A stretch of DNA of 32,000 nt from an uncultured Candidatus Saccharibacteria bacterium (GCA_964406725.1 CAYOSV010000003.1:9962-41961); one strand, 5' to 3'. Counted from the stretch's first letter, positions 1,267 through 23,463 are shown. The notes: generated by a model from the letters alone, not told the origin. Made by a program: numbers and translations.

Positions 1267-2691
1267 TTAACGGTTGTTCTTCCGATTTCTCTTTACAATC
1301 CAAAACGCTACTGTACCTATCACCACGAATACAACCAAACCAGTAATCAAGTAATCTTCTCTAGTCATATTAAGTCCTTGGAAGAAGCTACCAGTATCTG
1401 GAACAACGATCGATTGCTCATAATAGTGAATTATAATCGGTTTGCTATCCCCTACCAATTTGCCCTCAGCGTTCCTATACATAATTAGACCTGTATAGTC
1501 TCCATATGCCAAACCTTCCATAGGAATAACCATATTGTCATCGGAGTAAGCATTGTCAAGGGTGAACAGCAAATTCTCATCTGCATCGTAAACGCTTACT
1601 TTTCCAGTTGCACGATCTGCTCTTACTATTCTAACTAAATTTCCATTAGGCCCATAAATATAAATCTCTACAGTGGTTACGGTATCTACTTTCTGTACTA
1701 TATCTACATCCATTTGACCATCTTCGGTTTTTGTAATAGTCTGAGTGGTGGTAGCGATTTTTTCGTCATCAGAATTGTAGTAGTCGGTGATAATTGTATA
1801 TACACCCGATGGCAAATCGGTAAGGTCGATCGGCACAGTGGTCCCTGGTGTTGGATTTGGGAAGGTTTGGGGGGGTATCACTACATCACCATTACTATTT
1901 TTTACAGTAATTATCACATGATCAATTTCCTGGCCCTGATCTTCAATCTCTACCGGAGTATTATAACCGTCCCCGATGACAATCGTAGTAGTCTTTATAT
2001 CGGTGATGTTGCCATTCTTATCTCTAGTAATCGTCTCCATCGTATAAATACCATCATAAATAGGATCAGGTGGAGCCATCAAATCAAGACTTTCCACGGC
2101 ACTTGGGTCAGTAAAGTTATAATGTTTGACCAATGCACCAGTGTCGTCATAAATATTTATTTCTACGGTTTTCGTAACCGCTTCTGGCACATCTGGATCC
2201 ACCGTAGGTTTATCATCTTCTGGTTCAATTGGTGCCGGCGCCACATCTTGATAACTCACTGTTATGATTTTTTCTACCGGTACCCCATCTCTATTGGTAC
2301 CAGTAACAGTAATGGTAAAATCACCTTTCCCGTTGTAATTGTCAAGGTTTAGATTTACCGTTTTTTCTCCTGGGCTAGTAACAGCCTCATCAAAGAGGTC
2401 TTCTTCCCAAGTCACTGTCCCATCCGCATTGCGGTTTACCAAAGTGGCTTTTAAATTTGAAACATTATTGTAGGATACAGTAAAACTGTAGTCCGGACTA
2501 GTGACTACACTGCCACTAGTTGATGTAACGCTTACCTCTGGATCAGCAGAGAGCACTTGCACCTGAAGCTGATCAGATGTCGAAGATAGCGCATAGGCTC
2601 CTGGCACTTGCGTAGTCGCCGCAAAAGTAGTTACTGCAGCTACTAAGCCAAGTCCCGTAAAGCCGAGTATTTTTTTGTGTGTTTTTTTCAT
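1267..2691 (-). CDS. Secreted repeat-rich surface protein with a sortase-type C-terminal sorting signal (VPDTG, hydrophobic segment, KRNRKNNR)
   Basis: N-terminal signal peptide (MKKTHKKILGFTGLGLVAAVTTFAATTQVPGAYA). Recurring beta-rich segments (TVEINIYDDTGALV / TVEIYIYGPNGNLV). C-terminus has VPDTG, then a TM helix, then a basic tail. SD ggag upstream. Confidence 0.7.
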   Translation of the reverse strand: MKKTHKKILGFTGLGLVAAVTTFAATTQVPGAYALSSTSDQLQVQVLSADPEVSVTSTSGSVVTSPDYSFTVSYNNVSNLKATLVNRNADGTVTWEEDLFDEAVTSPGEKTVNLNLDNYNGKGDFTITVTGTNRDGVPVEKIITVSYQDVAPAPIEPEDDKPTVDPDVPEAVTKTVEINIYDDTGALVKHYNFTDPSAVESLDLMAPPDPIYDGIYTMETITRDKNGNITDIKTTTIVIGDGYNTPVEIEDQGQEIDHVIITVKNSNGDVVIPPQTFPNPTPGTTVPIDLTDLPSGVYTIITDYYNSDDEKIATTTQTITKTEDGQMDVDIVQKVDTVTTVEIYIYGPNGNLVRIVRADRATGKVSVYDADENLLFTLDNAYSDDNMVIPMEGLAYGDYTGLIMYRNAEGKLVGDSKPIIIHYYEQSIVVPDTGSFFQGLNMTREDYLITGLVVFVVIGTVAFWIVKRNRKNNR

Positions 2692-2772
2692 AACACTCCA
2701 ACTTTCCTTTTTATTTTTATGTTAATATTTTTGTTTTGGTTTCGCAAATCCCTAAATTTCAGGGAAATCGGC

Positions 2773-3783
2773 CTAAACCATGAATTTGGACCGACGCTCT
2801 TTGCGCTTCCTAACTACGATTGTAATCCATATAATTACTATTGTCAATAGCAAAAGCACAATAATTATCACCGCTATTGGCATAATAATTACAAATTTAG
2901 TGATAGTCTCACCCGGCTGATCATTAGCAAAAACCGTCCATTCTACATTAAACATTCCAAAGAAAGGCGTGTCCTTCCAGCTATCGGATACGGAAAGCTC
3001 TGTATCAGGGATAATCGATATGCGCGCAGCTGTAGAATTAGCCGGCGTCTCGTAATATACATTTCCAAAAATACCCGTTACTTTCATCTTGCCAGTAGCC
3101 ATAAAATCCACATTCCCAGTGTTTTTTACTTTTCCAACCGCATTAATAAGGGTTTTTTCTTCCCCATCCACTGTCATATTGTTATTGATGGCAAGACCAG
3201 AAATCTCGCTGGCGACAATCGTCTCCCCAGCAGCTCGCCCATAGACTACTAGACCTGGACTAGCTTCGGTTTTGATCCCGCTAGAATCTACCGTCCCAGA
3301 AAGCGTGTGTGCAAACAGCACGGCATATTGACCACCAGCCGGTATGCTTTCAGGTGTAGTGATACGGTACATCACCTCTACGTCACTTTTTGGCGCCGCT
3401 GTAAAAGTGGTCTTTTCTACGTAATTACCGCTAGCGTCTTTAAAAGTAATCCATCTGGTAATCTGGGTGAAATTATTTTCCTTGTTGAAGCCAAGCCTAT
3501 AGGCGTCTTCATTCTCGGAATAGATGTAGGCATATGGTGCAGCATAGACTTCAAACTCCATTGGAGAATTACTGTTGTTGCTTACTTTAAATACTGCATC
3601 GTAAGTAGAGCTTGGCGACAATTGCAAAACTTCACTAACGGGACTAATGCTAATGCTGGTGGCCGCATCTGAAGCTCCCGTATCTTCTGATTCGTCTGCG
3701 TAGGTATTGCCACCAAACAATACCACACATGCTACCGCAGTAGTCAGCACCAGCATTGAAATTTTTTTAATTAAACTCCTCAT
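2773..3783 (-). CDS. Secreted cell-surface protein with C-terminal TM anchor (architecture resembles DUF916/DUF3324 proteins of WxL-type loci)
   Basis: Signal peptide, then two beta-rich domains, then a C-terminal helix IAVIIIVLLLLTIVIIWITIVV followed by RKRKERR. SD aaggagg upstream. The family call is by architecture only. Confidence 0.6.
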   Translation of the reverse strand: MRSLIKKISMLVLTTAVACVVLFGGNTYADESEDTGASDAATSISISPVSEVLQLSPSSTYDAVFKVSNNSNSPMEFEVYAAPYAYIYSENEDAYRLGFNKENNFTQITRWITFKDASGNYVEKTTFTAAPKSDVEVMYRITTPESIPAGGQYAVLFAHTLSGTVDSSGIKTEASPGLVVYGRAAGETIVASEISGLAINNNMTVDGEEKTLINAVGKVKNTGNVDFMATGKMKVTGIFGNVYYETPANSTAARISIIPDTELSVSDSWKDTPFFGMFNVEWTVFANDQPGETITKFVIIMPIAVIIIVLLLLTIVIIWITIVVRKRKERRSKFMV

Positions 3784-3838: not shown

Positions 3839-3848
3839 ATAAATACAA

Positions 3849-3939
3849 GCGCGCGTGGTGGAATTGGTAGACACGCTACCTTGAGGTGGTAGTGGCCACA
3901 TTTACGGCTGTGCTGGTTCAAGTCCAGTCGCGCGCACCA
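3849..3939 (+). tRNA. tRNA-Leu (anticodon GAG), class II long variable arm, CCA encoded
   Basis: Acceptor gcgcgcg/cgcgcgc. D-arm gtgg-aattggtaga-cac. Anticodon stem ctacc/ggtag with loop ttGAGgt. 20-nt variable arm. T-arm gctgg-ttcaagt-ccagt. Discriminator A plus CCA. Confidence 0.93.
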
Positions 3940-4283
3940 GACCGAAATTCTTCGGTTGAAGCATTGCTAAATATGTGCTTTAGAGGTTTCTTCCATCTGA
4001 AAGAGACCTCATTTTTGTTGTTGATTTCTAGGTTCGTAAGCATATTTCTGGCCAACTGGTCTTTTTGCCAGGAATCGCCAGATTTCATCTTGTCACCGAT
4101 GGAATCCAGCTGGTTCGTAAGCTCATCCAGAATTTCGCGAACTTGGTCTGGATCGAAGATTTTAGCCTCAATCTCATCACGCTCAGTTTGCAAAGTTGCT
4201 ATATCGTTCCGGCATTCTTCAAGCTGTTCACCCACCATCTGTTTAGCCTCTTTTGGCGCATCTTTGCCTAAATGTCTGTTCCA
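3918..4283 (-). pseudogene. Start-less remnant of a coiled-coil protein (possibly the C-terminal part of a recombinase) running into the tRNA 3' end
   Basis: The frame is open from 4283 with its only Met at 4238 and no RBS. It has a heptad-like acidic coiled coil, then LEINNKNEVSFRWKK. The last ~7 codons are encoded by the tRNA 3' end, and a small hairpin (3941-3956) also lies inside it. Confidence 0.3.
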
Positions 4284-4297
4284 TTATTTCTTTTATT

Positions 4298-5869
4298 CTA
4301 TTTTCCATCCTTTTTCTCCACTATGTAATTATTATTATACTTCAACGGTTTAGTTAGCGTGTATTTGAAACGCTGAACCTCACGAGAATGATTTGGAACT
4401 TTTCGAAATCCATTATCACTATAGAATGTTTTAGTCTGCTCGTTCTTTTTGCTATCTATATACTCACCTATGACCGTTTTGACCCCTAATGTCTTTAGTT
4501 CATTTAATACGATTTTTAGAAATTCTCGCTCAATTTTTCGGCCTAATATTCTGCAACTCATTAAAAATGTATCTATAGTCGCTTCTTTTTTGTTTTTTCT
4601 AACTATTGCAACTCCGGTAAGGCCAAGATCTCCGAATTTATCACTTACTTTTATTGCTATTATTAGCGCGTCAGTCATATTAGCTAATTCGGTTTTACCG
4701 TAACGCCTAGTTGTTAAATTGAACTGATTCGTTTTATTGATCAGCTGAGCGATTCTGTCGCTATTATTGTCGTTTATGGTCTCGTAGGCTATTTTGATTT
4801 TCAATTTTTTTATAAACTCATCCTCGTTTTCGACTCTTCTTCTCAACTCTTCACTTTCCGTTTTATGTTTATAGTAAATATTTTTATTTACGTCGTCTTC
4901 TGTTAGTAGATATGTTCCGAAATATCTATAAAAATCTTTGGCGAAATGTCCAACCATTTTATAGGGTGAATCTGGGAAGTCTAAGACTGTAACTCCATCC
5001 AATGCTTTTACGTTTTCTCTTTCTACTGGGCTATCATCTATAAAAACAATGCTATCTAAACCGATATTCAGTTCATCAGCTAATTCAGAAATATTAAGTC
5101 TTTTCTCTGACCAATTTATCTTTTTAGCAGCAAAATCATCCAGAGACAATACTAAATCATCTCTTTTTTTGAAACACAGAGCTACATCATCATAGTTATT
5201 TTTGCTGCAAATCCCTAGCAGAATACCTTGATTTTTTAGCTCTAAAACCATTTGTTGAAAACTATGGAAACAATTGCCTGGATAGGAGCCGCTGATTTGT
5301 AAATTTGCCAATCCGTCTTCACCCAGAATACCACCCCACAAAGTATTATCTAAATCTAGGATTAGGCATTTTTTTCGAGTTCCTCGAAACAGCGCCATCT
5401 TATCTAAAATAAAACGCCGAAAATCTTTCGCAAGAGACGGGTTTATTATTGCATTATATAAGTAATAATACTTTGGGTTAAATACGTCGTTATGATTATT
5501 ATAAAATGGCGCTATATCTATAACTCTGACATTTTTCTGGCTATATAGATATTCATTATATGAGTTAATAGCTTTCTCTAATTCATTATTTCCGAAAACG
5601 AATGATTCGTAAAAATAATTATGTAGGGTGATTGCAAATATTGTCCTATTTGGATAATTGTTTATGATGTATTTCGCTCGTTCAAAATAGCTATTAATCG
5701 TCGACACTAAATCTTTAATAGAATAATCATATGGTAGCATATAGAAAATCATTATATCTGTGTCGTCGTTCAATAGTTTAATATCACCATATGCGCTATA
5801 CGATATAGTTTCTACGTCTTTGAATAAGTATTCAATTGCGGTATCACGATAACAGTAAATCTTTTTCAT
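4298..5869 (-). CDS. FkbH-like HAD-IIIC family protein (putative glyceryl-ACP forming enzyme) with C-terminal GNAT-like region
   Basis: Signature CLILDLDNTLWGGILGEDG (DxDxT HAD motif I), ICSKN, FIDDSP, and the C-terminal FLMSCRILGRKIEREFL typical of FkbH-domain proteins. Confidence 0.8.
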   Translation of the reverse strand: MKKIYCYRDTAIEYLFKDVETISYSAYGDIKLLNDDTDIMIFYMLPYDYSIKDLVSTINSYFERAKYIINNYPNRTIFAITLHNYFYESFVFGNNELEKAINSYNEYLYSQKNVRVIDIAPFYNNHNDVFNPKYYYLYNAIINPSLAKDFRRFILDKMALFRGTRKKCLILDLDNTLWGGILGEDGLANLQISGSYPGNCFHSFQQMVLELKNQGILLGICSKNNYDDVALCFKKRDDLVLSLDDFAAKKINWSEKRLNISELADELNIGLDSIVFIDDSPVERENVKALDGVTVLDFPDSPYKMVGHFAKDFYRYFGTYLLTEDDVNKNIYYKHKTESEELRRRVENEDEFIKKLKIKIAYETINDNNSDRIAQLINKTNQFNLTTRRYGKTELANMTDALIIAIKVSDKFGDLGLTGVAIVRKNKKEATIDTFLMSCRILGRKIEREFLKIVLNELKTLGVKTVIGEYIDSKKNEQTKTFYSDNGFRKVPNHSREVQRFKYTLTKPLKYNNNYIVEKKDGK

Positions 5870-6285
5870 ATTTCCTCCATTAATTCTATTAGTTTACCGC
5901 TCTTGTACATAAAGCATATCTTGCCATTGAACAATTTAGCTATTTCAATATTAGTGATTAAAGAATAGCCATCTTTTTTGAATACCTTAATGGTGCGATC
6001 AAGATTGTTTATTTTAAAACAGGTGTGGTATTCTTTCTTATAGTTGTTGTGTGACAAATTGAAAACTCGCGATTCTGGATTATCTGTATATATTAGCTCT
6101 ATGCTGTTTTGATTATCCTTACTAAGTAACCGCAACTTAGCCTTTTGCCCGGAGTCATAGACCTCGTTTGTAATTTGATAACCATCCCGCAGATATTCGT
6201 CCGTTAATTCATCTAAATTATTGGTGGCAACCCCTATGTGATGAATTACTAGCCCATTAACGACTCGGCAATTTTGACTTTTCAT
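5866..6285 (-). CDS. VOC/glyoxalase-family protein (methylmalonyl-CoA-epimerase-like fold)
   Basis: N-terminal LVIHHIGVATNNLDE resembles the VOC metal-binding beta-strand motif. Size is 139 aa. 4-nt ATGA coupling on both sides. Confidence 0.55.
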   Translation of the reverse strand: MKSQNCRVVNGLVIHHIGVATNNLDELTDEYLRDGYQITNEVYDSGQKAKLRLLSKDNQNSIELIYTDNPESRVFNLSHNNYKKEYHTCFKINNLDRTIKVFKKDGYSLITNIEIAKLFNGKICFMYKSGKLIELMEEI

Positions 6286-7424
6286 GCTAGCCTCTCTATC
6301 TTTTTTATGAGAGACTTCATATATTCTTCAGTGAATTGATCTCCGTAGTAACCTATACTGATATTTGTCTTATGGGAACATTCTACTATAACTATCGAAA
6401 ATGCACCTAGAGGTTGTTGTATTGATAAGTCTACAAAATCTTTAACTTTAAAATATTTATTGGAATATTCATTTAAATCTATTCTGCCTAAATGCGATAT
6501 GACGGCGCCGACGGAAAATTTATTGTAGTGTCGGTTTGCCATGCATCCAATTTTTATGCCCGTCTTTCGCAACAAACTTGGCATACGACAATAATAATTG
6601 TTCAAAGTATTGCTGATGTTTAACTCTTTGCTGTTCTTCAAACTATACAACAGCTCACCATTAATCTTGGTATAACTATCGCTCTTATCTACATCTAGAA
6701 AAACTGGCAAGGTCAGATTGCCTATATATGGATTGTTGCCGTCGTAACGTCTTAAATCTACAGGCACCATTACTCTTATCCGGTCGCTTTCAAATTCCCG
6801 AGCTAAAAGGCACGAAAGTTTGGCTATAATACCCGAAACATACTTGTCTAATTGTACGACTTGCCACCTTGTCGTGTATTGTTTGATAACCGACGCTTCG
6901 TCATGGATAATTCGGGGTAATTTTGGTTCTTTCTTCTTGTAGTAGTCTAGTTTCTTTAAGAAATCTTTCTCGGAGATAGCTTTTTTGCATTTTAGTGGCT
7001 TTTTTCCGCCTAGTAGATTTACAATGTTTTGCATAAAAAGAAGGGCACTCTTTCCATCCATTGCCGAATGGGCGAATCGAAACACTAAATAATCGCTCTT
7101 GGGCGCCTTCACGAGATAGACTTCCATTGAGTGGCTAATTAAATCTATTTTTTGATTAAATAAATCTAGACTATAGACAATAGAATCTTTGATTTTAATA
7201 TCTTGGATACTGATTGGATGCTGCTGTGGATAAAATTTACCCCTTCTTAGATAGACATTAAATTCTGGGCATTCTTTTATTACTCGCCTAATTACACATT
7301 CAATTATATCTTTATTTTTAATGCTGCTAGTTTTTAGAATGAACTGTATTGCATATGCATTGGTTGCGCTCTGTACATCCTCATATAATTGCTCTATATT
7401 TGTGATTTTTCGAATTGGTTTCAC
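6282..7424 (-). CDS. Stand-alone condensation-domain-type acyltransferase (HxxxDG; PapA5/WS-DGAT/NRPS C-domain superfamily)
   Basis: FRFAHSAMDGKSAL carries the HxxxDG catalytic motif at about residue 120. Downstream VDLRR and GNLT segments resemble C-domain motifs. 380 aa. Confidence 0.6.
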   Translation of the reverse strand: MKPIRKITNIEQLYEDVQSATNAYAIQFILKTSSIKNKDIIECVIRRVIKECPEFNVYLRRGKFYPQQHPISIQDIKIKDSIVYSLDLFNQKIDLISHSMEVYLVKAPKSDYLVFRFAHSAMDGKSALLFMQNIVNLLGGKKPLKCKKAISEKDFLKKLDYYKKKEPKLPRIIHDEASVIKQYTTRWQVVQLDKYVSGIIAKLSCLLAREFESDRIRVMVPVDLRRYDGNNPYIGNLTLPVFLDVDKSDSYTKINGELLYSLKNSKELNISNTLNNYYCRMPSLLRKTGIKIGCMANRHYNKFSVGAVISHLGRIDLNEYSNKYFKVKDFVDLSIQQPLGAFSIVIVECSHKTNISIGYYGDQFTEEYMKSLIKKIERLA

Positions 7425-8989
7425 TTTCCACCTCTCTTTATCTTTAATGTAGTGGTTTTCTCGAATTCATCTTCCTTGATTATGTATTTATTGATACGTT
7501 TATAATCCGGTAATTCTGCATTTATGTCTTTAATAAGTTTACTTATTTTGCTGTCGAGAGACTTATCTTTCCGGTTTTTATCTTCTGGCACTATTGTAGC
7601 GATAATTTGTAAGCCGGATTTCTTTTGAACTCCATTTATGATACTCTCTTTAACTATGTCGCTATAATTAATCAGTGTTTCTAGTTCCTCTGGATAAATG
7701 TTTTTACCGTTACTGGTCACAATGACGTTTTTCTTTCTACCAACTACTTCCAGATTACCATCATTTCTTATTCTGCCTAAATCACCCGTGTAGAGCCAAC
7801 CATTCTTTAAAACCTCTCCCGTAGCTTTTTCATCATCATAATAACCCAACATAACTTGTGGAGCTTTGGCAATAATTTCTCCAATACCAGCCGCATCTGG
7901 ATTGGCTATTTTTAGATGTACGCCATTTAGCGGCCTACCGACGCCAATTTTACTTTTTACAAACATTCCGCGAATGGTTAAAATCGGTGAGCTCTCCGTT
8001 AACCCGTATCCCTGGTAAATATTAAATCCTAAATCGTCCAGGAAGTTAAAAACCCTTTGGTCTAGCTCTGCTCCACCACAAGCGATCATGCGAACCTTGC
8101 CTCCAAATCTGGCGTGAATACTAGAGAATAAGAGCTTTCTTATATCAATATGTAATAGTCTCACTCCTCTTGATATAAAAATTAGTTTTTGCAGAGCCTT
8201 TTCTTTGTGTGTTTTCTTAGCTGTGAGTTTTATATTATTCATAATGTATTCGAGCAGCCTCGGTACCACAACGAGTGCAGTTGGCTGGTAAAAGCACATT
8301 TCTCTCTGCATGTCTTTAATATTTTTGCTAAAACAAATCGAGCATCCATTGGTAATAGGCACCAACACTGCACACATTAGAGTAAGCGTATGATGGAGTG
8401 GCAAAATTGTATAATACCTATCCGTGGATTTTAGCCTAAAAGCGGCGGCTGAAGAATAGGCACAAGAAACTAAGTTTTTTTCGGATAACATGACGATCTT
8501 AGATTTAGACGTTGTGCCGGAAGTTAGAAATAGTGCGGCGCAGTCGCGTTTCGACACTTTTTTGACTTTACGATTTGGCGTCTCTCTGATGATGTCGTCT
8601 ATTTTATTTATATGTTCTGCATGGATATTTTTAGGAAGACAATTTACTTTGTCTTTCGTTAAATCATCATAGAAAATGAAATCCAAACCGATACGCTTAG
8701 CAGATAATGCAAGCTCTTTTTCTGGCAGCTCTTTATCAAGTGGCACTATTGTTCCAACGTCAGCAGCCATGGCAAAGAATAGTAATAGCCAACTATAAGA
8801 ATTAGACGCATAAATACCAATCTTTTTGCCAACTAAACTATTGTCCACAAAGTAACCTGACAATTTTTGGATATCATTATAAAATTCTTCGTAGGTCTTT
8901 GAAAATTTTTCGTCGACGAAGAAAGTTTTCTGCCCATACTTTTGGACACTTTCAGAAATCATCGCAGAGAAATTATTCGCCCTAGTCAT
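7421..8989 (-). CDS. AMP-dependent synthetase/ligase (FadD-like fatty acyl-AMP/CoA ligase)
   Basis: ANL motifs: LTSGTTSKSKIV, YGLTESS, GWLYTGDLG, and a terminal TLKIKRG lysine. Confidence 0.85.
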   Translation of the reverse strand: MTRANNFSAMISESVQKYGQKTFFVDEKFSKTYEEFYNDIQKLSGYFVDNSLVGKKIGIYASNSYSWLLLFFAMAADVGTIVPLDKELPEKELALSAKRIGLDFIFYDDLTKDKVNCLPKNIHAEHINKIDDIIRETPNRKVKKVSKRDCAALFLTSGTTSKSKIVMLSEKNLVSCAYSSAAAFRLKSTDRYYTILPLHHTLTLMCAVLVPITNGCSICFSKNIKDMQREMCFYQPTALVVVPRLLEYIMNNIKLTAKKTHKEKALQKLIFISRGVRLLHIDIRKLLFSSIHARFGGKVRMIACGGAELDQRVFNFLDDLGFNIYQGYGLTESSPILTIRGMFVKSKIGVGRPLNGVHLKIANPDAAGIGEIIAKAPQVMLGYYDDEKATGEVLKNGWLYTGDLGRIRNDGNLEVVGRKKNVIVTSNGKNIYPEELETLINYSDIVKESIINGVQKKSGLQIIATIVPEDKNRKDKSLDSKISKLIKDINAELPDYKRINKYIIKEDEFEKTTTLKIKRGGK

Positions 8990-9506
8990 ATAGTTCCTCT
9001 ATGGCCTCCTCTAATTTATCCGTGAGAATGTCCGCATCTGAATCTTTTTTTATCTCTAATTTGATAGATGTCGCAATCGACTTTATGTCATCCGGAAAAT
9101 CATCATTATTAAGATTAATCCCTACTCCTACTACGACATATTCTAGTGTATCGGCCTTAAAATGCGCCTCAATCAAAATACCACAGACTTTTTTATTATT
9201 AATCTTGATATCATTCGGTAAAACCACTTTGGAATTTACGCCGTATAGTTCATTTAGCTTTTTAGAAATGATAACTGGTATGTGTTCTAAAGCATCTTTC
9301 CTTAACTTTTTGTCTCCACTTTTGTTTTTCAACAGGAAACTAAGAGTAATACTTTTATTTGGTTCGGAAAACCATTTCCTATCGAACTGTCCGCGCCCAT
9401 TCGTTTGGGATTTTGCAATGATTAGAATATTTTCATGCGTTTTGTCTGCTATTTTTTCTGCATGATCATTGGTGCTATTGATGCTTTCTAGAACAATTCT
9501 TTTCAT
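8982..9506 (-). CDS. birA: Biotin--protein ligase, catalytic core only (no HTH, apparently no C-terminal domain)
   Basis: SINSTNDHA, QTNGRGQFDRKW (GRGRxGRxW-type motif), KINNKKVCGILIE. Start placed at the second Met (ATGA overlap with the fabF stop, GGAG 6 nt upstream). The ORF track start is 9518. Confidence 0.8.
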   Translation of the reverse strand: MKRIVLESINSTNDHAEKIADKTHENILIIAKSQTNGRGQFDRKWFSEPNKSITLSFLLKNKSGDKKLRKDALEHIPVIISKKLNELYGVNSKVVLPNDIKINNKKVCGILIEAHFKADTLEYVVVGVGINLNNDDFPDDIKSIATSIKLEIKKDSDADILTDKLEEAIEELYD

Positions 9507-10729
9507 TGCGCGCTCCATTTCTTAAATACCAGACAGGCATTATGGCCACCAAAACCAAATGAATTAGATAGAGCATAGTTAGCGTTGGTCAACCGCTCTT
9601 TTTCAGAGACATTCAAGACACAGTCGTCTTCTAGATCCAACTTGTAAGTACTACCGGGTATAATTCCGCTCCCCAGCATTAATATCGTAGCTATAGCCTC
9701 TACTGCACCGCTAGCGCTAAGCAAGTGCCCGATTTGCGACTTAATCGACGACACGGGTGGACATTCCTTACTCCATATCTCGCGGATGGCTTTTGCTTCA
9801 GTTTTGTCACCCAATATCGTAGATGTGCCATGCGCATTGATATACCCGATATTGTCAGGATTAATCTCGGCGCAGGCAATAGCACCCAACATAGCATCCT
9901 TGCTCGATAGGCCTTCGTAGTCTGGTGATACCATATTAAAAGCATCCGAATTATTAGCGTATCCTACAATCTCGGCATATATCTTAGCCTTTCTTTTTAG
10001 CGCGTGAGATAGCTCTTCCAAAACTAGAACACCAGCACCCTCTCCTATTAGAAAACCACTACGCTTTTTATTGAAAGGAATTGAAGCGCATTTTTTGTCT
10101 TCGCCAGTATATATAGCCCTCATTGCGGCGAAGCCGGCGAGGGTTAGTGGAGTTATAGACGCATCTGCTGCTCCAGCAACGAAAATATTATTATCTCCAT
10201 TTCTGATTTTTAGAAATGCTTCACCTATTGATATGCCACCACTTGCGCAGGCCGCTACATGACACATACTACTCCCTTTAGCACCTAAATCTATTGATAC
10301 TTTTGCTGCGGCCGTATTTGGCAAAACTGATTGTAGGAAATATGGTGAAATTCTGGCTGCGCCTTTTGTGTCTAATTGTCTAACACCGTCACTCAATATC
10401 TCTGGTCCACCAATGCTTGTAGAAATATAAACTCCGACCTTCTTAGCATCTTCTAAAGCCATATCTAGTCCGGAATCATTCCATGCTTCACGTCCGGCAA
10501 TTCTCGCAAAATTTGTAAATCTCGAATCGAATTTTGTATCTCTTTTTGGCAAGGATGATAAGTCTAAATCTTTGACAGTTGCCGCTAACTTTACGGGCGA
10601 CTCGGCGAATTCTTCCGTATCTAAGACACTAATACCATCTTCGCCAGACTTTAGGCTATCCCAGAAGTCTTTTGCATTATTGCCAATAGGAGTAATCGCA
10701 CCTAACCCAGTTACTACCACTCGTCTCAT
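9503..10729 (-). CDS. fabF: Beta-ketoacyl-ACP synthase II (elongating KS, Cys-His-His)
   Basis: RRVVVTGLGAITPIG, active-site ACASGG, HGTST, GHLLSASG, FGFGGHN. Confidence 0.9.
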   Translation of the reverse strand: MRRVVVTGLGAITPIGNNAKDFWDSLKSGEDGISVLDTEEFAESPVKLAATVKDLDLSSLPKRDTKFDSRFTNFARIAGREAWNDSGLDMALEDAKKVGVYISTSIGGPEILSDGVRQLDTKGAARISPYFLQSVLPNTAAAKVSIDLGAKGSSMCHVAACASGGISIGEAFLKIRNGDNNIFVAGAADASITPLTLAGFAAMRAIYTGEDKKCASIPFNKKRSGFLIGEGAGVLVLEELSHALKRKAKIYAEIVGYANNSDAFNMVSPDYEGLSSKDAMLGAIACAEINPDNIGYINAHGTSTILGDKTEAKAIREIWSKECPPVSSIKSQIGHLLSASGAVEAIATILMLGSGIIPGSTYKLDLEDDCVLNVSEKERLTNANYALSNSFGFGGHNACLVFKKWSAQ

Positions 10730-11514
10730 TTTATAATCCTTTCAATATCTTCTAGCGACTCAACTTTCCTTACTCTAGCTCGAACCCCCTTTTCTTTGCA
10801 TATTTGACGAATTAGATTTACCGGCGCAGTTCCAATGCCGATGCTGATAAATTCATCTACTGAGTCATCCAACATATTTTCAATAATGCTTTGGAATTGT
10901 ACCGGGCTCACTAAATGCTTCACCATCGCTCCTCTGACATCTTTGATTATTTTCTTGCCAGTTAAGTTACAATAAATCGGTATAGTAGGCGTTTTCTCGC
11001 AAAAGCTATCTAAAAATCTCCTCATCTTTTCACTGGCACTATTTAAATATGGGGAATGGAAGGCGCCAGTTACTCGCAAATCAATTGTCGATGCGTTTTT
11101 AAATTGCCGGAAAGCATCCTTAAACTCCTTTATTCTTGTCTTTTCTCCTCCGACTACGGTTTGCATAGGTGAATTATAATTTGTAACAAAAAGACCGCAC
11201 CTCGTTGCCATTTTCTCAATTTCTTTTGCCGGCATACCGAGGCACGCCACCATAGAAGTATTTGAGCCTCTTAATGCATCATCCATTATTTTTTGCCTAA
11301 ATATTAGGATTTGCTCTAGCTCTTCAACGTTAAAAACATCCGCAACAGCAAAACACGCATATTCCCCAAGGCTAAGACCTGCTATCGCATCTGGCTTAAT
11401 ATCATTTGCGATTAAAATTTTCGCTAAAGCAATGCTCATCCAAAAAGTGGCTAGCTGAGGATTATGAATTCCCAGTCCTTCTCCTTGTCCAGTAAAAATA
11501 AACGCTCGTTTCAT
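10726..11514 (-). CDS. fabD: Malonyl-CoA:ACP transacylase, shortened
   Basis: FIFTGQGEG, nucleophile elbow GLSLGEY, NSPMQTVVGG, GAFHSPYL. 262 aa compared with about 310 for typical FabD. Confidence 0.8.
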   Translation of the reverse strand: MKRAFIFTGQGEGLGIHNPQLATFWMSIALAKILIANDIKPDAIAGLSLGEYACFAVADVFNVEELEQILIFRQKIMDDALRGSNTSMVACLGMPAKEIEKMATRCGLFVTNYNSPMQTVVGGEKTRIKEFKDAFRQFKNASTIDLRVTGAFHSPYLNSASEKMRRFLDSFCEKTPTIPIYCNLTGKKIIKDVRGAMVKHLVSPVQFQSIIENMLDDSVDEFISIGIGTAPVNLIRQICKEKGVRARVRKVESLEDIERIIK

Positions 11515-13133
11515 TGCTTATCCCAGTTCCTTATTCTATTATACCGTCTATCAAGTAATTGTTTCATATCAAATTTGCTTAAACGTACTAAGGACTCTGC
11601 AAAATAGCGCTCTATTTGCAAAGTGTTATATTCCAATGTACCTTCTTTTAGAATCTCGTCAACTAATCCCTCGTTATATAAATCTTTAGCTGTAAACTTC
11701 ATGTTTGCTAATAATTCTGGCTGGACTTCGGGTTTATTAAAAATAATTGCAGAATAGGATTCAGGTGATATGACGGAGTAAGTTGCTCCACTAAACATTG
11801 CGAGTACGTCCGAAACCGATAAACCCAATGCACCACCGCTACAACCTTCTCCAGTCACTATTGATACTATTGGTGTTTTTGTTTCCAGTAAATTGAGCAT
11901 ACTTTCCGAAATGGCAATACTTTGACAATTCTTTTCTGCAACATCTCCAGGATGCGCCCCAGGACTATCGAGCAATATCAGAACGGGCAAGTGAAACCTT
12001 TCGGCTAATTTTGCTACTCTAATGGCCTTCCTAAAGCCTTCTGGTCTAGTCATTCCGTAATTATTCTCTATATTCTCTCTCAGATTTCTGCCTTTATTCT
12101 GGATGATGAAAGCTGTTTTTATGCCAGATATTTCTCCGAGTCCAGTGAGTAAACTTGGATCATCATAAGAAATTCGATCTCCTTTCAATATTATGGGGTT
12201 GTCAAAAAGTTTAAAGAGATAATCGATTCCAACTGTTTTAGAGTTGTTTCTAATATTTTGGAGAACTATTTCTGGTTTTTTATTGCCATGGTCATATTCT
12301 GGTTTTTCATTCTCAGCTTTAATTGAATTGTTCTTGTTTAGTATAGCTAAAAGCTCAATAATTGTATTCAATATATCTTTTCGCTCGCAAATCATGTCTA
12401 GCCCGCCGCTTCTCAACACATATTTTGCACTTTGAAAATCGTCAGCAACCTGTTCGTGTAATATGTCTTTCACCAGCATCTTGCCGCCGAACCCAATTGA
12501 GGAATTTGGCTCAGCGATATTTATATCACCCATTAATCCAAAAGATGCAGTAGTGCCGCCATAAGTTGGATCCGTTAAAACAGAAATAAACGGCAGGCCT
12601 TTTTTGCGAAATTTCATCAAAGTAGCGTCAATCTTCGCCATTTGTACTAAGCCCACAGCGCCCTCTTGCATACGCACTCCGCCTCCAGCGCAGAAAGCCA
12701 CAACAGGAAGATTACTCTTTGTTGCATATTCGAAGGCTTTCGCGATTTTTTCACCATTTGCCTTCGATAAAGTACCAACCATAAAATATCGTTCCATTAG
12801 TATAGTAATAAAAATTTTACCGTTTACTTTACATTTGCCGACAATGACGGATTCAGAGAGGCCGGTACGATTTTTGTCCCGTTCAAATTTTTCACTATAA
12901 TCATATGTTCTTGAATTATCTATATCGTATTCTGCTAAAAGTTGTTTGAATTTTCCACCATTCTTTCGTATAATTTCTATTCTTTTTAGAGCTGGCATCC
13001 TCTCATGATGTTTGCATTTTTTGCACACTAGAAGCTCGTCCAATTCGTCACCGCAGTTTGAACAGGCTGGCCTATTTAAGATTCTAGCGTTACGCTTCTT
13101 TATTTTTATCTTCTGCTCATCCAGGATACTCAT
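11511..13133 (-). CDS. accD: Fused acetyl-CoA carboxylase carboxyltransferase beta-alpha (AccD-AccA)
   Basis: N-terminal Zn ribbon CSNCG...CKKC and an AccD-like half (VVAFCAGGGVRMQEG). C-terminal AccA-like half (GFRKAIRVAKLAERFHLPVLILLDSPGAHPG, VTGEGCSGGALG). Confidence 0.85.
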   Translation of the reverse strand: MSILDEQKIKIKKRNARILNRPACSNCGDELDELLVCKKCKHHERMPALKRIEIIRKNGGKFKQLLAEYDIDNSRTYDYSEKFERDKNRTGLSESVIVGKCKVNGKIFITILMERYFMVGTLSKANGEKIAKAFEYATKSNLPVVAFCAGGGVRMQEGAVGLVQMAKIDATLMKFRKKGLPFISVLTDPTYGGTTASFGLMGDINIAEPNSSIGFGGKMLVKDILHEQVADDFQSAKYVLRSGGLDMICERKDILNTIIELLAILNKNNSIKAENEKPEYDHGNKKPEIVLQNIRNNSKTVGIDYLFKLFDNPIILKGDRISYDDPSLLTGLGEISGIKTAFIIQNKGRNLRENIENNYGMTRPEGFRKAIRVAKLAERFHLPVLILLDSPGAHPGDVAEKNCQSIAISESMLNLLETKTPIVSIVTGEGCSGGALGLSVSDVLAMFSGATYSVISPESYSAIIFNKPEVQPELLANMKFTAKDLYNEGLVDEILKEGTLEYNTLQIERYFAESLVRLSKFDMKQLLDRRYNRIRNWDKQ

Positions 13134-14395
13134 TACTCATTCTCTCCAAAATAGCTATAGCTACCCACTATATAATCTTCTCGGCTAATAGTCTCGTAGA
13201 GTTCATCAACGTTAGTATGAGCACCTAAAATAATTATTTCATCAAGTGCGAGTTTCATCTTTGAGATCGCCCTCCGCCTTTCCTTGTCGCTTGCTATTAT
13301 TTTTGCAATCAGCGGATCATAATATGGCTTTATTCGGTATCCTTGATAAATATATGTGTCTATTCGCACATCTTTTCCCGTAGGTAAGCTAAATATATTA
13401 AGCTCGCCATTATCCTTAGCAGATAGCCTGCATTCGATGGCGCATTTTTTAGCACTCACTTTCATAGGCAGACGATTCTTCTGACCTGAAGCTATTCTGA
13501 TCTGCTGTTCAACAAGATCTATACCCGTGACCTCTTCTGTTACAGTATGTTCGACTTGTAATCTAGAATTTATTTCAAGAAAATAATAGTTCATCTGTTT
13601 ATCCACCAAAAATTCAATCGTCCCGACACTATCAAATCCAACCTCTTTTATAAGTTTGACGGCGTCTTGTTCCATTTTTTCCAACAGCTCTTTTGGTATA
13701 TTAGACACTGGGGTTTCTTCAATGACCTTCTGATAATGCGATTGCACGGAGCAGTCTCTGGCCGGTAGAATAGAAATTTTGCCGAATTTGTCCGCAACAA
13801 ACTGTATATCTATATGCTTATATAAATCTATTATTTGCTCCAGGAAGAAACTGTCTCCGCTAAACCCAGTGCTCAAATTTAGTTTGGCGGATTTGAGACA
13901 ATAGTCGAAATCCTCTTTGTTTTTTACTGTTTTTATGCCTTTTCCACCACCGCCATAGCTTGATTTAATCATTAGCGGATATTCATCTTTATCGACTGAT
14001 GGGATAACTGGAATTCCTAATTTTCTTGCCATTTCTTTCATCCGGAATTTATTTGCAGTTTTTTCTAAAATGTTGCTTGATGGCCCAATAAATATAATTC
14101 CACTTTCATGGGCTCGTTTTGCAAACTCATCATTTTCGCTTAAAAAGCCATACCCTGGATGCAAAGAATCACATCCCGTATTTTTTGCCGCCTCTAGAAT
14201 TGCTGGAATGTTAAGATACGAGTCTGATGGGCTGCTATCACCAATACAAATCGCCTCATCGGCCAAGAATACCGCCATAGTATCTTTATCGCATTTTGAG
14301 TATGCCACAACCGTTCTAATACCCAAAATACGGCAGGTCTGTATTATTCTTACTGCTATTTCTCCTCTATTTGCAATTAGTACTTTTTGAATCAT
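13133..14395 (-). CDS. accC: Biotin carboxylase
   Basis: KVLIANRGEIAVRII, HPGYGFLSEN, SYGGGGKGI, RDCSVQSHYQKVIEE, EINSRLQVEHTVTE. Confidence 0.92.
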   Translation of the reverse strand: MIQKVLIANRGEIAVRIIQTCRILGIRTVVAYSKCDKDTMAVFLADEAICIGDSSPSDSYLNIPAILEAAKNTGCDSLHPGYGFLSENDEFAKRAHESGIIFIGPSSNILEKTANKFRMKEMARKLGIPVIPSVDKDEYPLMIKSSYGGGGKGIKTVKNKEDFDYCLKSAKLNLSTGFSGDSFFLEQIIDLYKHIDIQFVADKFGKISILPARDCSVQSHYQKVIEETPVSNIPKELLEKMEQDAVKLIKEVGFDSVGTIEFLVDKQMNYYFLEINSRLQVEHTVTEEVTGIDLVEQQIRIASGQKNRLPMKVSAKKCAIECRLSAKDNGELNIFSLPTGKDVRIDTYIYQGYRIKPYYDPLIAKIIASDKERRRAISKMKLALDEIIILGAHTNVDELYETISREDYIVGSYSYFGENE

Positions 14396-14757
14396 ATATA
14401 ATCAACCTCAAAAAGCTTAGAGCCAAATTCTACACTCTCTCCGTTCTTAAAATACGTTTTTCTAATAATCAAATCAGCCGGTGCACAAATTTTATTCATT
14501 ATTTTCATGCTTTCAATGATACATAAAGACTGACCTTCTTTAACTCTTTCGTTTATTTGTATGGTTGGGGATACATCATAATAAGTGCCTACCAGCGGCG
14601 ACAAAATATGTTTATCTGGATAGTCAGTCTTTTCTTGATCCGTTTTAGGACCATTCTTCTTTATAGAAACTCTAAAATCGGCATCCTCGTACTCAAATTC
14701 GGTTGCTTCAGAATTATCGAAATCAGCTAAAATCTTCTTTAGTTTATCAATTGGCAC
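14392..14757 (-). CDS. accB: Biotin carboxyl carrier protein, short form
   Basis: Biotinyl-lysine motif CIIESMKIMNKI in a C-terminal lipoyl/biotinyl fold. 121 aa. Confidence 0.8.
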   Translation of the reverse strand: MPIDKLKKILADFDNSEATEFEYEDADFRVSIKKNGPKTDQEKTDYPDKHILSPLVGTYYDVSPTIQINERVKEGQSLCIIESMKIMNKICAPADLIIRKTYFKNGESVEFGSKLFEVDYI

Positions 14758-14983
14758 TTTCTATACCTTTCTCCGCTAGTAAATCCAAACAATTCTTTAC
14801 GGTCTTTAGTTTAGCGAGTTCGCTTTGCTCTACTTTTATATTGTATTTTTCTTCAAGCGAGAGCACTAATTGCGTAGTCGCCAAGCTATCGATCATCAAA
14901 TCGTCTCTTAGGCTAGTTTCTAATGTAATATCATCGTCTATGCCCAATTCCTCATCTAGAAACTTTTTAAATTCTTTCAACAT
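14747..14983 (-). CDS. Acyl carrier protein (cluster-specific)
   Basis: 78 aa, acidic, with the phosphopantetheine site LMIDSLATTQLV (DSL). Confidence 0.85.
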   Translation of the reverse strand: MLKEFKKFLDEELGIDDDITLETSLRDDLMIDSLATTQLVLSLEEKYNIKVEQSELAKLKTVKNCLDLLAEKGIESAN

Positions 14984-14984: not shown

Positions 14985-15917
14985 TTATATCTCCATTAAT
15001 AATATATTAGATGTTAACCCTGCCGCAGTCCCACATAGCATTACTTTGTCACTAGTATGGATTTTTCCTTCTTCTAGCATTTTGCATAACATAAATGGAA
15101 CCGAAACGGACACTTGATTACCAAAGCTATCAACGCGATTGACATATTTTTCTTCTGGTATTCCCAATTTTTTCATAATCAAGGGTAATGCCTTACTCGC
15201 CTGATGTGGGATTACTAAGTCTACATCGTTCAATGATAGATTAGCCTCTTTTTTAAAATCATCAAACATTTTTGGTAATTTTCGCGTGCATGCACGTAAT
15301 ATATCGAGCCCCTCCATTTTAAAGTAATATTTGTCTCGGTTTTTATTGTTCATTTTAGTGGCATTAAGTCCAGTTAATCCACCTATAATTTCTGTCGCGT
15401 GCGCGCTTTCTGACCAAGTGCACTGTTTAGAGGCTATTACACCTTGTTTCGTATCATTAGTATGAGAAAGTACAATTGCCGCGGCTCCGTCAGAGAATAG
15501 TTCATAGATTTCTTTTTTATCCTTCGGAAGCCCAGGGCTAGCCAGCTCGCTTGATACAATTAAAATATTTCTATATGTTCCAGCTGCAATTAGATACGAT
15601 GCAATGTCCAGTGCGGTTATAAAGCTAGTACAAGTGGTATTAATATCCATGGCAGGAATATTGCAGTCGTTCATTATTTGTTCATGAATTAAGCTTGCTG
15701 TACAGGGGATTGGTTGGATACCTACTGCTGAAGCGGCTATTATCAAATCAATATTTTCTGGTTTTAGCCTAGCATTTTTCATCGCCTTTTTAGCGGCATC
15801 TGTCGCCATAAAAAGTTGATTTTCCTTACCTGAAGCTCTGTATCTAATTTGACTACCAAATGTCACTATGTTTTTTGGTAAATAATATCCATAGCCCGAT
15901 ATTTTACAATTTCTCAT
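14985..15917 (-). CDS. KAS III (FabH)-like condensing enzyme
   Basis: ISGYGYYLP at the N-terminus. Cys in NTTCTSF, His in IPHQAS, Asn in FGNQVSVS (Cys-His-Asn triad). 310 aa. Confidence 0.85.
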   Translation of the reverse strand: MRNCKISGYGYYLPKNIVTFGSQIRYRASGKENQLFMATDAAKKAMKNARLKPENIDLIIAASAVGIQPIPCTASLIHEQIMNDCNIPAMDINTTCTSFITALDIASYLIAAGTYRNILIVSSELASPGLPKDKKEIYELFSDGAAAIVLSHTNDTKQGVIASKQCTWSESAHATEIIGGLTGLNATKMNNKNRDKYYFKMEGLDILRACTRKLPKMFDDFKKEANLSLNDVDLVIPHQASKALPLIMKKLGIPEEKYVNRVDSFGNQVSVSVPFMLCKMLEEGKIHTSDKVMLCGTAAGLTSNILLMEI

Positions 15918-18955: not shown

Positions 18956-19128
18956 GATTTTCTCCATACTATCCCCATAACCAAGTGGAACACTCGCCAT
19001 GGAGTGTTCTAGACTTCATTTTTCACAGTAAGCTATCGAGCCAACTGGAGCGAGTGCTCCACGCAGGGTTCGATATTTCACACTACCTTGTTAGGGGTAG
19101 ACTTACCATGAAATTGAAATCTAGAACT
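18956..19128 (-). promoter_or_regulatory. Structured ~170-nt 5' leader of the biosynthetic operon (candidate riboswitch/attenuator, class unknown)
   Basis: Nested helices on the minus-strand RNA, in plus coordinates: 19120-19127 with 19006-19013; 19098-19106 with 19028-19035; 19067-19073 with 19036-19042; hairpin 19047-19060. An alternative hairpin at 18988-19009 excludes the outer helix. Confidence 0.4.
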
Positions 19129-21036: not shown

Positions 21037-21037
21037 G

Positions 21038-23077: not shown

Positions 23078-23103
23078 ACGCCATCACCAGTGCTGGAACG
23101 ATA
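23078..23103 (+). repeat. 26-nt box, left copy (5' boundary of module A)
   Basis: acgccatcaccagtgctggaacgata. The reverse complement recurs at 24763-24788 with one mismatch. Confidence 0.8.
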
Positions 23104-23397
23104 GTAAACAAAAGCAGTTCTGACGATACCGGAAATACAAATACAGCAACAGAAAGTATATGCCCAAAAGGGTGGACCTTGCCAAGCAAAAAGCAGGTAG
23201 ATAATAATAGAGACACCGCTAATTTTAGCCCGGTATTGGGTGGAGATTATCACAACGCTATTCATGATCGTGGAGCTATACGCGGAGGTTGGTGGGGGAG
23301 TGAAGTCTTTAATGGTGCGGTACGGGACGACCTGGTTTATAATGGTAGTAGTATGAATACCGGTGGTGGTGCTCGTCAATACGGCTTCTACATCCGC

Positions 23398-23463
23398 TGC
23401 GTTAGTGAAGAAAAGACTGTAACAGACTTAACTTATCTTCAGGATATGACGGGTGAGATTGCA
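23398..23463 (+). repeat. 66-nt inverted repeat, left copy (3' boundary of module A)
   Basis: tgcgttagtgaagaaaagactgtaacag...gggtgagattgca matches the reverse complement of 24403-24468 at 65/66 (mismatch at 23421). Identity ends abruptly on both sides. Confidence 0.9.

Follow-up and report, generated by a model that had tools for sequence, protein, structure and literature searches.

A variant of FkbH/ACP thiotemplate chemistry in an unexpected host, Saccharibacteria, with a widespread uncharacterised cassette

The DNA analysed here, a stretch of 32,000 nucleotides from an uncultured Candidatus Saccharibacteria bacterium (GCA_964406725.1, CAYOSV010000003.1:9962-41961; hereafter the window), carries on its minus strand a run of 16 overlapping or abutting genes, from 20313 to 4298, the last of which encodes an FkbH-type protein. 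The locus is a variant of FkbH/acyl carrier protein (ACP) thiotemplate chemistry in an unexpected host, and it contains a widespread, uncharacterised gene cassette. On balance, we think it probable that these genes form a mobile composite thiotemplate island of ∼16–20 kb, built of three blocks and carried by ruminant-gut Saccharibacteria, in which FkbH is partnered by a dedicated small carrier protein (ACP2) and a condensation (C)-domain enzyme. An earlier note on this DNA had grouped FkbH with the ACP encoded at 14747–14983 (ACP1) and a 3-ketoacyl-ACP synthase III (KAS III), in the manner of tetronate biosynthesis. That trio is not supported, because ACP2 is the conserved partner of FkbH, and KAS III lies 9 kb away, is of a non-tetronate type and is found mostly in loci where FkbH is lacking within 10 kb.

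FkbH and its missing carrier protein

The FkbH gene (4298–5869, minus strand) is intact, encodes a protein of 523 aa and is confirmed, as the earlier note had it, as specifying a genuine FkbH-type enzyme with all catalytic motifs. The protein matched the NCBIfam model TIGR01686 (‘FkbH domain’) over residues 166–489 with 265.7 bits (E = 5e-79; cut-off 146.65) and the HAD-IIIC model TIGR01681 with 66.3 bits (cut-off 35.75), so that the assignment lies well outside what chance would give; Pfam gave no match at E ≤ 1e-3. It has three domains: an N-terminal domain (residues ∼1–165), a HAD-IIIC phosphatase domain with DLDNT at 172–176, lying within the signature LDLDNTLWGGILGEDG (residues 171–186), and a C-terminal GNAT-fold domain bearing Cys439 in MSCR. 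In an AlphaFold2 (AF2) model (pLDDT 90.7), Foldseek matched the N-terminal and HAD domains to PDB 3slr, the N-terminal part of Bacteroides BF1531 (E = 1.6e-22), and the C-terminal domain to GNAT acetyltransferases.

Reference FkbH sequences were taken from annotated plasmids: the ZmaN orthologue of a zwittermicin cluster (L014), the canonical methoxymalonate cassettes L017 and L018, and four tetronate-style cassettes (L021–L024) identified by context. The motifs DxDxT, SKN, DD, TNQxN and DKFGD and the Cys of MSCR are common to all three kinds of reference in the alignment, and the HAD residues D172, D174, T176, S222/K223 and D278/D279 align with those of the ZmaN orthologue and the methoxymalonate-cassette FkbH. 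Among 40 FkbH homologues, D172, D174, T176, K223, D278, D279, C439 and R440 are invariant, S222/K223 being among the HAD positions that are invariant or nearly so, and C439, within MSCRILGR, is kept in 16 of 16 aligned FkbH types. Work on OzmB is said to have shown that this conserved Cys carries the glyceryl thioester. Characterised members of the family load a glyceryl unit onto an ACP (PMC7489565), and this is the basis of the activity predicted for the window protein.

Comparison of relatives in several phyla shows that FkbH has a conserved partner, an adjoining small carrier that is usually encoded directly downstream. In all close relatives (L001, L004, L005, L012 and L006, the last a ‘Bacilli bacterium’ metagenome-assembled genome, MAG), a carrier ORF of 71–75 aa with a WDSxxHL motif, ACP2, overlaps or abuts the FkbH stop codon and is translationally coupled to FkbH. 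A phosphopantetheinyl transferase (PPTase) gene follows ACP2 in the relatives, with a second C-like gene standing between the two in L005; it was not seen in L006 and L012 within the sequence recovered for these loci. The intact 71 aa ACP2 ORF of L001 matches carrier-protein models only, and weakly. ACP2 is 46% identical to the small carrier ORF that follows FkbH in a Marinifilum capsule locus, and its similarity to ACP1 is marginal. FkbH likewise has an ACP gene at its side in the tetronate-style cassettes of Bacillaceae and Streptomyces, at the Bacteroidota locus L011 and on S. meliloti pSymB.

A dedicated free-standing ACP of this kind is present beside FkbH in the relatives, whereas in the window a stub of 21 codons is all that is left of it. 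Comparison by blastn aligned window 4262–7147 with L001 2886–1, and window 3847–4268 with L001 6191–5770, showing that ∼2.9 kb (L001 2887–5769), comprising ACP2, the PPTase gene, two small ORFs and most of a large serine recombinase gene, has gone from the window. The junction lies in a 7 nt microhomology, GGCAAAG (4262–4268), which joins the 5′ end of ACP2 to the 3′ end of the recombinase gene. As read against the L001 ORF, the stub (4243–4308, minus strand) consists of MENRIKEIMEQTFRQ and six foreign codons and lacks the Ser attachment site; it is fused to the last 106 codons of the recombinase (3918–4238, minus strand), a remnant that marks the island end and is 98% identical to the end of the 540 aa recombinase of L001. 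We conclude that a microhomology deletion removed ACP2 and the island PPTase from the window. The earlier note's count of a single ACP is thus true of the window but describes a secondary state, since with ACP2 lost the ACP that remains is ACP1, a fatty acid synthase (FAS)-type carrier encoded beside KAS III. Because both ACP2 and the PPTase have been lost, the FkbH arm in the window is probably disabled, and possibly every other ACP-dependent step as well, unless ACP1 and another PPTase substitute. In the MAG from sheep ileum (L003), the PPTase gene is retained and the recombinase gene seems to have decayed.

The HxxxDG protein singled out in the earlier note is, as a prediction from its modelled fold, a stand-alone acyltransferase of the non-ribosomal peptide synthetase (NRPS) condensation-domain superfamily, encoded beside FkbH and with its motif intact (C380; 380 aa, H119-S-A-M-D123-G124; 6282–7424, minus strand). 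Foldseek matched its AF2 model (pLDDT 90.4) to C, E, Cy and starter-C domains in the PDB (E ∼1e-17 to 1e-15, TM up to 0.74), and H119, D123 and G124 are invariant in the homologue alignment. Pfam gave no Condensation match above threshold and AATase alone, at 18.8 bits. In relatives, C380 equals the N-terminal domain of C-A proteins of 955–970 aa, and a second C-like paralogue follows ACP2. An orphan family, suggested by the 16 matches of a word-indexed search, was overturned by an exhaustive search, which found 1261 representatives, mostly fusions of ∼1000 aa; the Streptomyces plasmid context of one C-A homologue was uninformative. The VOC/glyoxalase-fold protein encoded between C380 and FkbH (139 aa; 5866–6285, minus strand) matched Glyoxalase_4 with 40.7 bits, and its best match was methylmalonyl-CoA epimerase-like (TIGR03081, 31.9 bits, below cut-off). 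In the Bacteroidota locus L011, FkbH and its ACP are accompanied by a homologous VOC protein; on S. meliloti pSymB, an annotated one lies ∼3.5 kb upstream of the ACP–FkbH pair.

Together with a FadD/MenE-like adenylate-forming ligase (522 aa; 7421–8989, minus strand; AMP-binding 199.9 bits), whose best NCBIfam match was a long-chain-fatty-acid-CoA ligase (201 bits, below cut-off), C380, the VOC protein and FkbH make up block G (8989–4298), to which ACP2 and the PPTase belong in relatives. The data show domain identities, motifs, the deletion, gene co-occurrence and phylogenetic placement; substrates, order of steps and product are inferred. FkbH would take up 1,3-bisphosphoglycerate, with its HAD domain removing a phosphate; the glycerate would be held as a thioester on Cys439 of the GNAT-fold domain and then passed to holo-ACP2. 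The VOC protein might act on the alpha-carbon (C2) of the glyceryl thioester, and the C-domain enzyme would transfer a fatty or beta-keto acyl group from its thioester to a glyceryl hydroxyl, forming an ester. The donor could be a fatty acid activated by the ligase, carried on ACP1 and extended once by the FabF ketosynthase with malonyl-ACP supplied by the island's acetyl-CoA carboxylase (ACC) and FabD-like protein. These proposed steps would make ACP2 and the C-domain enzyme the partners of FkbH, rather than ACP1 and KAS III.

Malonyl-ACP supply and the KAS III cassette

Profile scans recovered all the other proteins on which the earlier note had drawn: FabF, a FabD-like protein, the three carboxylase components, a family 4 glycosyltransferase (GT4), ACP1 and KAS III. 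Block M (14983–8982, minus strand throughout) starts with ACP1 (78 aa; 14747–14983), an FAS-type carrier with the IDSL serine (PP-binding 41.3 bits; ACP models up to 53 bits). Next come a biotin carboxyl carrier protein (BCCP; 121 aa, SMKI; 14392–14757; Biotin_lipoyl 48.1 bits, TIGR00531 82 bits), a biotin carboxylase (BC; 420 aa; 13133–14395; NF006367 464 bits, and its Pfam domains) and a carboxyltransferase (CT; 540 aa; 11511–13133) in which accD (residues 32–270) is fused to accA (residues 284–537). They are followed by a FabD-like malonyl transacylase (262 aa; 10726–11514; Acyl_transf_1 83.4 bits, TIGR00128 136 bits, below cut-off), a FabF-type KAS II (408 aa; 9503–10729; NF005589 445.5 bits, cut-off 387) and a biotin-protein ligase consisting of the BirA catalytic domain only (178 aa; 8982–9518; TIGR00121 128.8 bits, cut-off 83.1). 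The FabD-like protein has GLSLGE in place of the canonical GHSLGE and retains a GAFH motif; an internal gap after the N-terminal GQG motif makes it ∼50 aa shorter than FabD. This short form (254–266 aa) is kept in the nearest island variants (L013, L028, L031–L033); the protein has 305–315 aa in more distant relatives.

With ACP, FabD-like, FabF, KAS III, ACC and BirA genes in one operon, the island resembles a type II FAS joined to an ACC. It differs from one in that it encodes no FabG, FabZ/A or FabI, and hence no reductive cycle, and a type II FAS reading was rejected on this ground; further differences are the altered FabD-like protein, the AccD–AccA fusion and the location on mobile DNA in a phylum for which an absence of FAS has been described. 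Pfam and NCBIfam profile scans of the 16 genes found no ketoreductase, dehydratase or enoylreductase (KR, DH, ER). As the earlier note held, the set could deliver a beta-ketoacyl thioester; its gene content is compatible with such a supply, though not specific for it. Block M would thus provide malonyl-ACP and one unreduced KAS II extension, which a host lineage described as lacking fatty-acid synthesis would not otherwise have.

Block A (20313–14985, minus strand throughout) is a conserved cassette of five genes, probably of glycolipid type. The lipid-GT-like GT4 (382 aa; 19165–20313) found its best NCBIfam match in alpha-monoglucosyl-diacylglycerol synthase (216 bits, cut-off 400; next match 110 bits), and the OleD-like extended short-chain dehydrogenase/reductase (SDR; 347 aa; 17957–19000) in OleD-type 2-alkyl-3-oxoalkanoate reductases (207 and 197 bits, cut-off 580; next family 111). 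A metallo-beta-lactamase (MBL)-fold hydrolase (264 aa; 17188–17982; Lactamase_B 47 bits) appears lactonase- or thioesterase-like from weak AttM, AhlS and pyridoxolactonase matches. The adenylate-forming enzyme that follows (425 aa; 15914–17191) is F390-synthetase-related and PaaK-like (TIGR02304 538.8 bits, cut-off 251.9), its best PDB matches being phenylacetate-CoA ligases. The fifth gene encodes the short-form KAS III (310 aa; 14985–15917), in which Pfam finds the two KAS III domains.

By combining a condensing enzyme of thiolase fold with an OleD-like reductase and an adenylate-forming enzyme, the cassette recalls the OleABCD/beta-lactone pathway. The ligase is of the PaaK/F390 type, however, not OleC; an MBL hydrolase takes the place of the alpha/beta-hydrolase OleB, OleA scores ∼54 bits against the island KAS III, and a GT is attached to the cassette. 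A strict Ole/beta-lactone reading was considered but not adopted, since the SDR is the one protein similar to its equivalent in the Ole pathway and no score reaches its cut-off. The product of block A is most likely a glycosylated lipophilic keto- or hydroxy-acyl compound; a lipid flavour of the island is suggested by the GT4, nearest to monoglucosyl-diacylglycerol synthase, by the SDR, nearest to OleD, and by an MMPL transporter encoded upstream in the variant L028. KAS III would act on ACP-bound substrates in a Claisen step, either decarboxylative or chain-joining, and block A might make and glycosylate its keto/hydroxy-acyl product either independently or after the FkbH arm has acted.

KAS III keeps the Cys-His-Asn triad (C96/H238/N267), invariant in 26 family members, and its best NCBIfam model was NF005541 (279 bits, below the 402 cut-off). 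Alignment with E. coli FabH leaves an 18-residue gap opposite FabH residues 20–37, and family members measure 308–319 aa throughout; the N-terminal CoA-binding segment is therefore missing, with Trp32 and Arg36, which we take to be CoA-contacting residues of E. coli FabH. Loss of this segment across the family suggests that the primer may be delivered by an ACP or an enzyme rather than as acyl-CoA. A PDB sequence search returned Aquifex FabH (140 bits), the ketosynthase 4v2p, presumably MxnB (137 bits), CorB (130 bits), E. coli FabH (87 bits) and OleA (∼54 bits). In direct comparisons, KAS III scored 106 bits against E. coli FabH and 40–67 bits against the four KAS III encoded directly upstream of FkbH in tetronate-style cassettes. 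Around His238 it reads IPHQAS; in the four cassette enzymes PHQA(N/S) is replaced by PPQL(S/G), with Pro at the His position. The view that KAS III is a tetronate-type enzyme is thus contradicted, since it stands nearer to FabH and CorB than to the enzymes of those cassettes.

Gene context is the more decisive evidence. Homologues of 55–60% identity occur in Aerococcaceae and Fusobacterium, where they form part of a five-gene cassette, GT / SDR / MBL / F390-ligase / KAS III, with no ACP, ACC, FabF or FkbH gene within 10 kb. A census of 80 metagenome loci of the KAS III family, with fractions counted over loci with enough sequence, found SDR, MBL and F390 genes with KAS III in 62 of 62 loci that had enough upstream sequence; ACP1/FabF occurred in 6/47, a C380-like gene in 3/36 and FkbH in 2/36. 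The cassette occurs commonly in metagenomes of gut and rumen, and its GT varies: a GT1 or GT21-type enzyme in the stand-alone cassettes of Aerococcaceae, Fusobacterium and two gut/rumen-type metagenome contigs, a GT4 in others, the series comprising L026, L027, L049, L105 and ∼55 more among L040–L109. Graded versions exist. L029 adds PPTase, ACP, FabD, FabF and ligase genes, L039 adds ACC, and L028, L031 and L032 also have the FkbH arm; blocks A and M occur together without FkbH in L039, L037 and L029, and one FkbH-bearing variant lacks the GT. From the cassettes that lack FkbH and from the graded versions we conclude that the FkbH arm is an accessory to a core with no need of glyceryl-ACP. 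The comparison thereby reveals a widespread, uncharacterised five-gene cassette in gut Firmicutes and Fusobacteria.

Alternative fates of the glyceryl unit

A neighbour-joining tree of 26 FkbH sequences (330 columns, 100 bootstraps) placed the window protein in a clade with 97% support, sister to Bacteroidota FkbH+ACP pairs of polysaccharide-type loci (joint support 99%), which lie in a capsule locus or in a small FkbH–ACP–VOC operon, beside Antibiotic_NAT-type acyltransferase genes. The Bacillaceae tetronate-style, S. meliloti MBOAT-linked and Streptomyces RK-682-like FkbH fall outside this grouping, and the short ZmaN and methoxymalonate FkbH form the outgroup. The earlier note had counted clustering with capsule- or LPS-associated proteins devoid of ACP-loading activity against its proposal. 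In form, such a clustering is what the tree gives; yet these relatives have ACPs and the catalytic Cys, so that ACP loading is still to be expected.

Several points weigh against the composite island with ACP2 and the C-domain enzyme as partners of FkbH. The deletion has left all 16 genes of the run intact, so that the pathway may still function with ACP1 and another PPTase. The glyceryl-loading activity of FkbH is predicted from motifs, and the putative roles of the VOC, MBL and SDR proteins from family matches below threshold. Deeper nodes of the FkbH tree are weak (36–65%), and the tetronate references, for KAS III as for FkbH, are plasmid homologues identified by context rather than the characterised RkD/RkE, Tmn15/16 or ChlM/ChlD1. 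Neighbourhoods were inspected over ±10 kb, so that genomes with the minimal cassette might carry FkbH elsewhere. Furthermore, we found no publication on the GT / SDR / MBL / F390 / KAS III cassette or on the island's proteins.

A more specific reading, which we regard as possible but on the unlikely side, has the mobile island provide Saccharibacteria, considered incapable of de novo fatty-acid or lipid synthesis, with a self-contained thiotemplate pathway in which the C domain esterifies scavenged and extended fatty acids onto FkbH-made glyceryl-ACP, the island itself supplying ACC, BirA, FabD, FabF, two carrier proteins and the PPTase. The product would be a glycerate-backbone lipid or glycolipid or, if the donor were a 3-oxoacyl group, a tetronate reached convergently by way of the C domain and a Dieckmann closure. 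Were this correct, a glycerate-backbone lipid would be independent of glycerol phosphate, either outcome would be a new use of FkbH chemistry, and the island would be a rare biosynthetic gene cluster (BGC) in the Candidate Phyla Radiation. The earlier note also offered an alternative to its trio, glyceryl-ACP acylated by the HxxxDG enzyme and glycosylated by GT4. The acylation half of that alternative agrees with gene adjacency better than the trio does. The glycosylation half is weakened, because the GT belongs to the KAS III cassette, the stand-alone block A, and is missing from one FkbH-bearing variant.

A second possibility, which we think unlikely, is that FkbH and ACP2, with the VOC protein, make a C3 hydroxy-acyl-ACP whose acyl group is moved onto a sugar or other hydroxyl of the block A glycoside as a decoration, not as a backbone. 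The closest sequence relatives of the window FkbH are the NAT/MBOAT-linked FkbH+ACP pairs of Marinifilum, L011 and S. meliloti pSymB, three-domain proteins of 520–535 aa that include the sister clade at 99% bootstrap, have homologous ACPs (up to 46% identity) and count BF1531, the protein of PDB 3slr, among their uncharacterised members. The Bacteroidota pairs sit beside Antibiotic_NAT-type acyltransferases and the S. meliloti pair with an MBOAT O-acyltransferase, the VOC–FkbH linkage recurs in L011, with a VOC gene also near the pSymB pair, and the island does encode a glycosyltransferase. No NAT or MBOAT transferase is found in the island, however; the candidate for such a transfer is an NRPS C domain, a type of enzyme whose acceptor is normally bound to a carrier, and FkbH here keeps company with that domain, a fatty-acid ligase and a ketosynthase/ACC set. 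The GT is wholly missing from one FkbH-bearing variant, and profile scans saw no polysaccharide export or polymerisation genes at the locus. As an observation in its own right, the occurrence of long-form FkbH+ACP pairs beside MBOAT or Antibiotic_NAT acyltransferases in the Marinifilum capsule locus (L010), in L011 and on S. meliloti pSymB (L025) would imply an apparently uncharacterised glycerate-derived acyl decoration of glycans; literature searches found nothing relevant on FkbH in polysaccharide or O-antigen loci, or on HAD-IIIC proteins with an ACP.

Agg4-like E2-type acyltransferases and Agg5-like dehydratases are optional in tetronate biosynthesis and absent from RK-682-type clusters. 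The glycerate-utilisation cassette of RK-682, agglomerin, tetronomycin and tetromadurin consists of FkbH-like, ACP and FabH-like proteins, with or without Agg4/Agg5 (PMC7489565, PMC4979870). In a type II, RK-682-like route on the island, KAS III would join glyceryl-ACP to 3-oxoacyl-ACP by O-acylation and Dieckmann closure, giving a 3-acyl-tetronate or butenolide. We consider this distinctly unlikely, although all its chemical inputs are encoded. A route to an unreduced beta-ketoacyl thioester lies in the same cluster, where the absence of KR, DH and ER would let beta-ketoacyl-ACP persist; KAS III is about as similar to the ring-forming CorB and 4v2p (130–137 bits) as to FabH (140), and has in common with them an insertion around residues 185–215. 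The long-form, three-domain FkbH, with its Cys-bearing C-terminal domain, is shared with tetronate-style cassettes, one of which provides its best plasmid match (33% identity over residues 29–491), and the order FkbH–ACP–PPTase of the island relatives, with a dedicated small ACP immediately downstream, is that of the Streptomyces RK-682-like cassettes.

Several features speak against the tetronate route. KAS III does not adjoin FkbH, belongs to another clade than the cassette enzymes, keeps the His that they replace by Pro and scores lower against them (40–67 bits) than against E. coli FabH (106 bits); it is tied to the SDR, MBL and F390 genes, and relatives ∼50–60% identical to it work in cassettes with no FkbH, ACP or FabF nearby. 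FkbH branches outside the tetronate cassettes, and Pfam found neither an E2-like protein (2-oxoacid_dh, Agg4) nor an alpha/beta-hydrolase (Agg5) among the 16 genes. The tetronate route also gives no role to the C-domain enzyme and VOC protein to which FkbH is linked. For genome mining, the case cautions that FkbH, ACP and KAS III in one cluster are not by themselves indicative of a tetronate. One complete tetronate-style cassette, unusual outside Actinobacteria, is present on a plasmid of Pseudalkalibacillus hwajinpoensis (L021; NZ_CP156675.1, 22642–40069), with genes for KAS III, FkbH, ACP and an E2-like acyltransferase, plus an alpha/beta-hydrolase, a ketosynthase, reductases and a PPTase.

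Known polyketide synthase systems use FkbH-derived units both as starters and as extenders (PMC7489565), the extender route being illustrated by L017, L018 and the ZmaN context L014, and the island has two ketosynthases; a glycerate starter for FabF or KAS III, or a precursor of hydroxymalonyl-ACP, is nevertheless very improbable, since Pfam and NCBIfam scans found none of the FkbI/FkbK-type dehydrogenases or FkbG methyltransferase that are present in L017 and L018, the short-form FkbH of those pathways is an outgroup to the window protein, and the occurrence of blocks A and M without FkbH makes the ketosynthases independent of a glycerate unit. A hydroxymalonyl/methoxymalonyl reading was rejected on the first two of these grounds. 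Such pathways (FkbG–K of FK520; ZmaN/D/G/E of zwittermicin) resemble the island in the DxDxT, SKN, DD, TNQxN and SCR motifs and in using a free-standing ACP to take up a C3 unit from glycolysis; they differ in a short FkbH (∼350 aa, 23–27% identity) that has no N-terminal domain, and in two dehydrogenases and an O-methyltransferase that the island does not encode. Long-form FkbH+ACP pairs occur in at least three contexts, namely tetronate cassettes, polysaccharide- or acyltransferase-linked loci and the C-domain-linked block described here, which widens the expected uses of glyceryl-ACP.

Mobility, host and flanking DNA

The island (window 3847–24897) has 97% nucleotide identity to its counterparts in L001 and L013, whereas the SBP, UvrC and enolase proteins of the L001 host have 58%, 74% and 73% amino-acid identity, respectively, to those of the window. 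The recombinase end adjoins the SBP_bac_5/SecG/UvrC block in L001, and it is the AbiE end that adjoins this block in the window and in L013; with opposite ends at the same flank, the island appears to have been inverted or inserted in both orientations. Near identity between diverged hosts, together with a large serine recombinase at one end, indicates that the island is mobile among Saccharibacteria species. A scan that treated each end separately found no repeats at the FkbH/recombinase end and, at the other, only an unrelated, invertible-looking region. Exact-sequence matches to the proteins carry the name Candidatus Saccharibacteria. A scan of genome contigs with the fused CT gave only two loci, both in Saccharibacteria MAGs of the ruminant gut (roe deer jejunum and sheep ileum), and no donor lineage.

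Saccharibacteria are ultra-small episymbionts with reduced genomes. By published description, Patescibacteria have no fatty-acid biosynthesis and reuse the lipids of other bacteria, and streamlined genomes seldom contain BGCs (PMC12455944). Such a host background explains why ‘housekeeping’ genes, for ACC and biotin ligase, and in relatives the PPTase, are carried on the island. The literature searched contained nothing relevant on BGCs of Saccharibacteria. The island shows that gut Saccharibacteria can acquire a complete malonyl-ACP-based pathway (ACC, biotin ligase, malonyl transferase, ketosynthases, carriers and PPTase), and it offers a concrete, testable handle on how they might build a surface lipid or a small molecule.

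At the GT4 end of the island lies a DUF6088/AbiEii pair (20437–22027), a type IV toxin–antitoxin system of the abortive-infection type with 93–98% identity in L013. Beyond it, nested inverted repeats (23078–24842), comprising a perfect 33 nt pair (23781–23813 and 24810–24842) and diverged arms of 174–183 nt, flank opposed ORF fragments with Fib_succ_major-like C-termini (GWWGS...GFYIRCV); the segment looks like an invertible or shufflon-type element for a surface protein. On the other side of the island, two surface-protein genes (1267–3783) encode products of 474 and 336 aa with C-terminal membrane anchors. The end of the 474 aa protein carries a sortase-like motif of the VPDTG type ahead of a hydrophobic stretch and basic residues; the protein has 31–43% identity between strains, as against 93% for the neighbouring L31.

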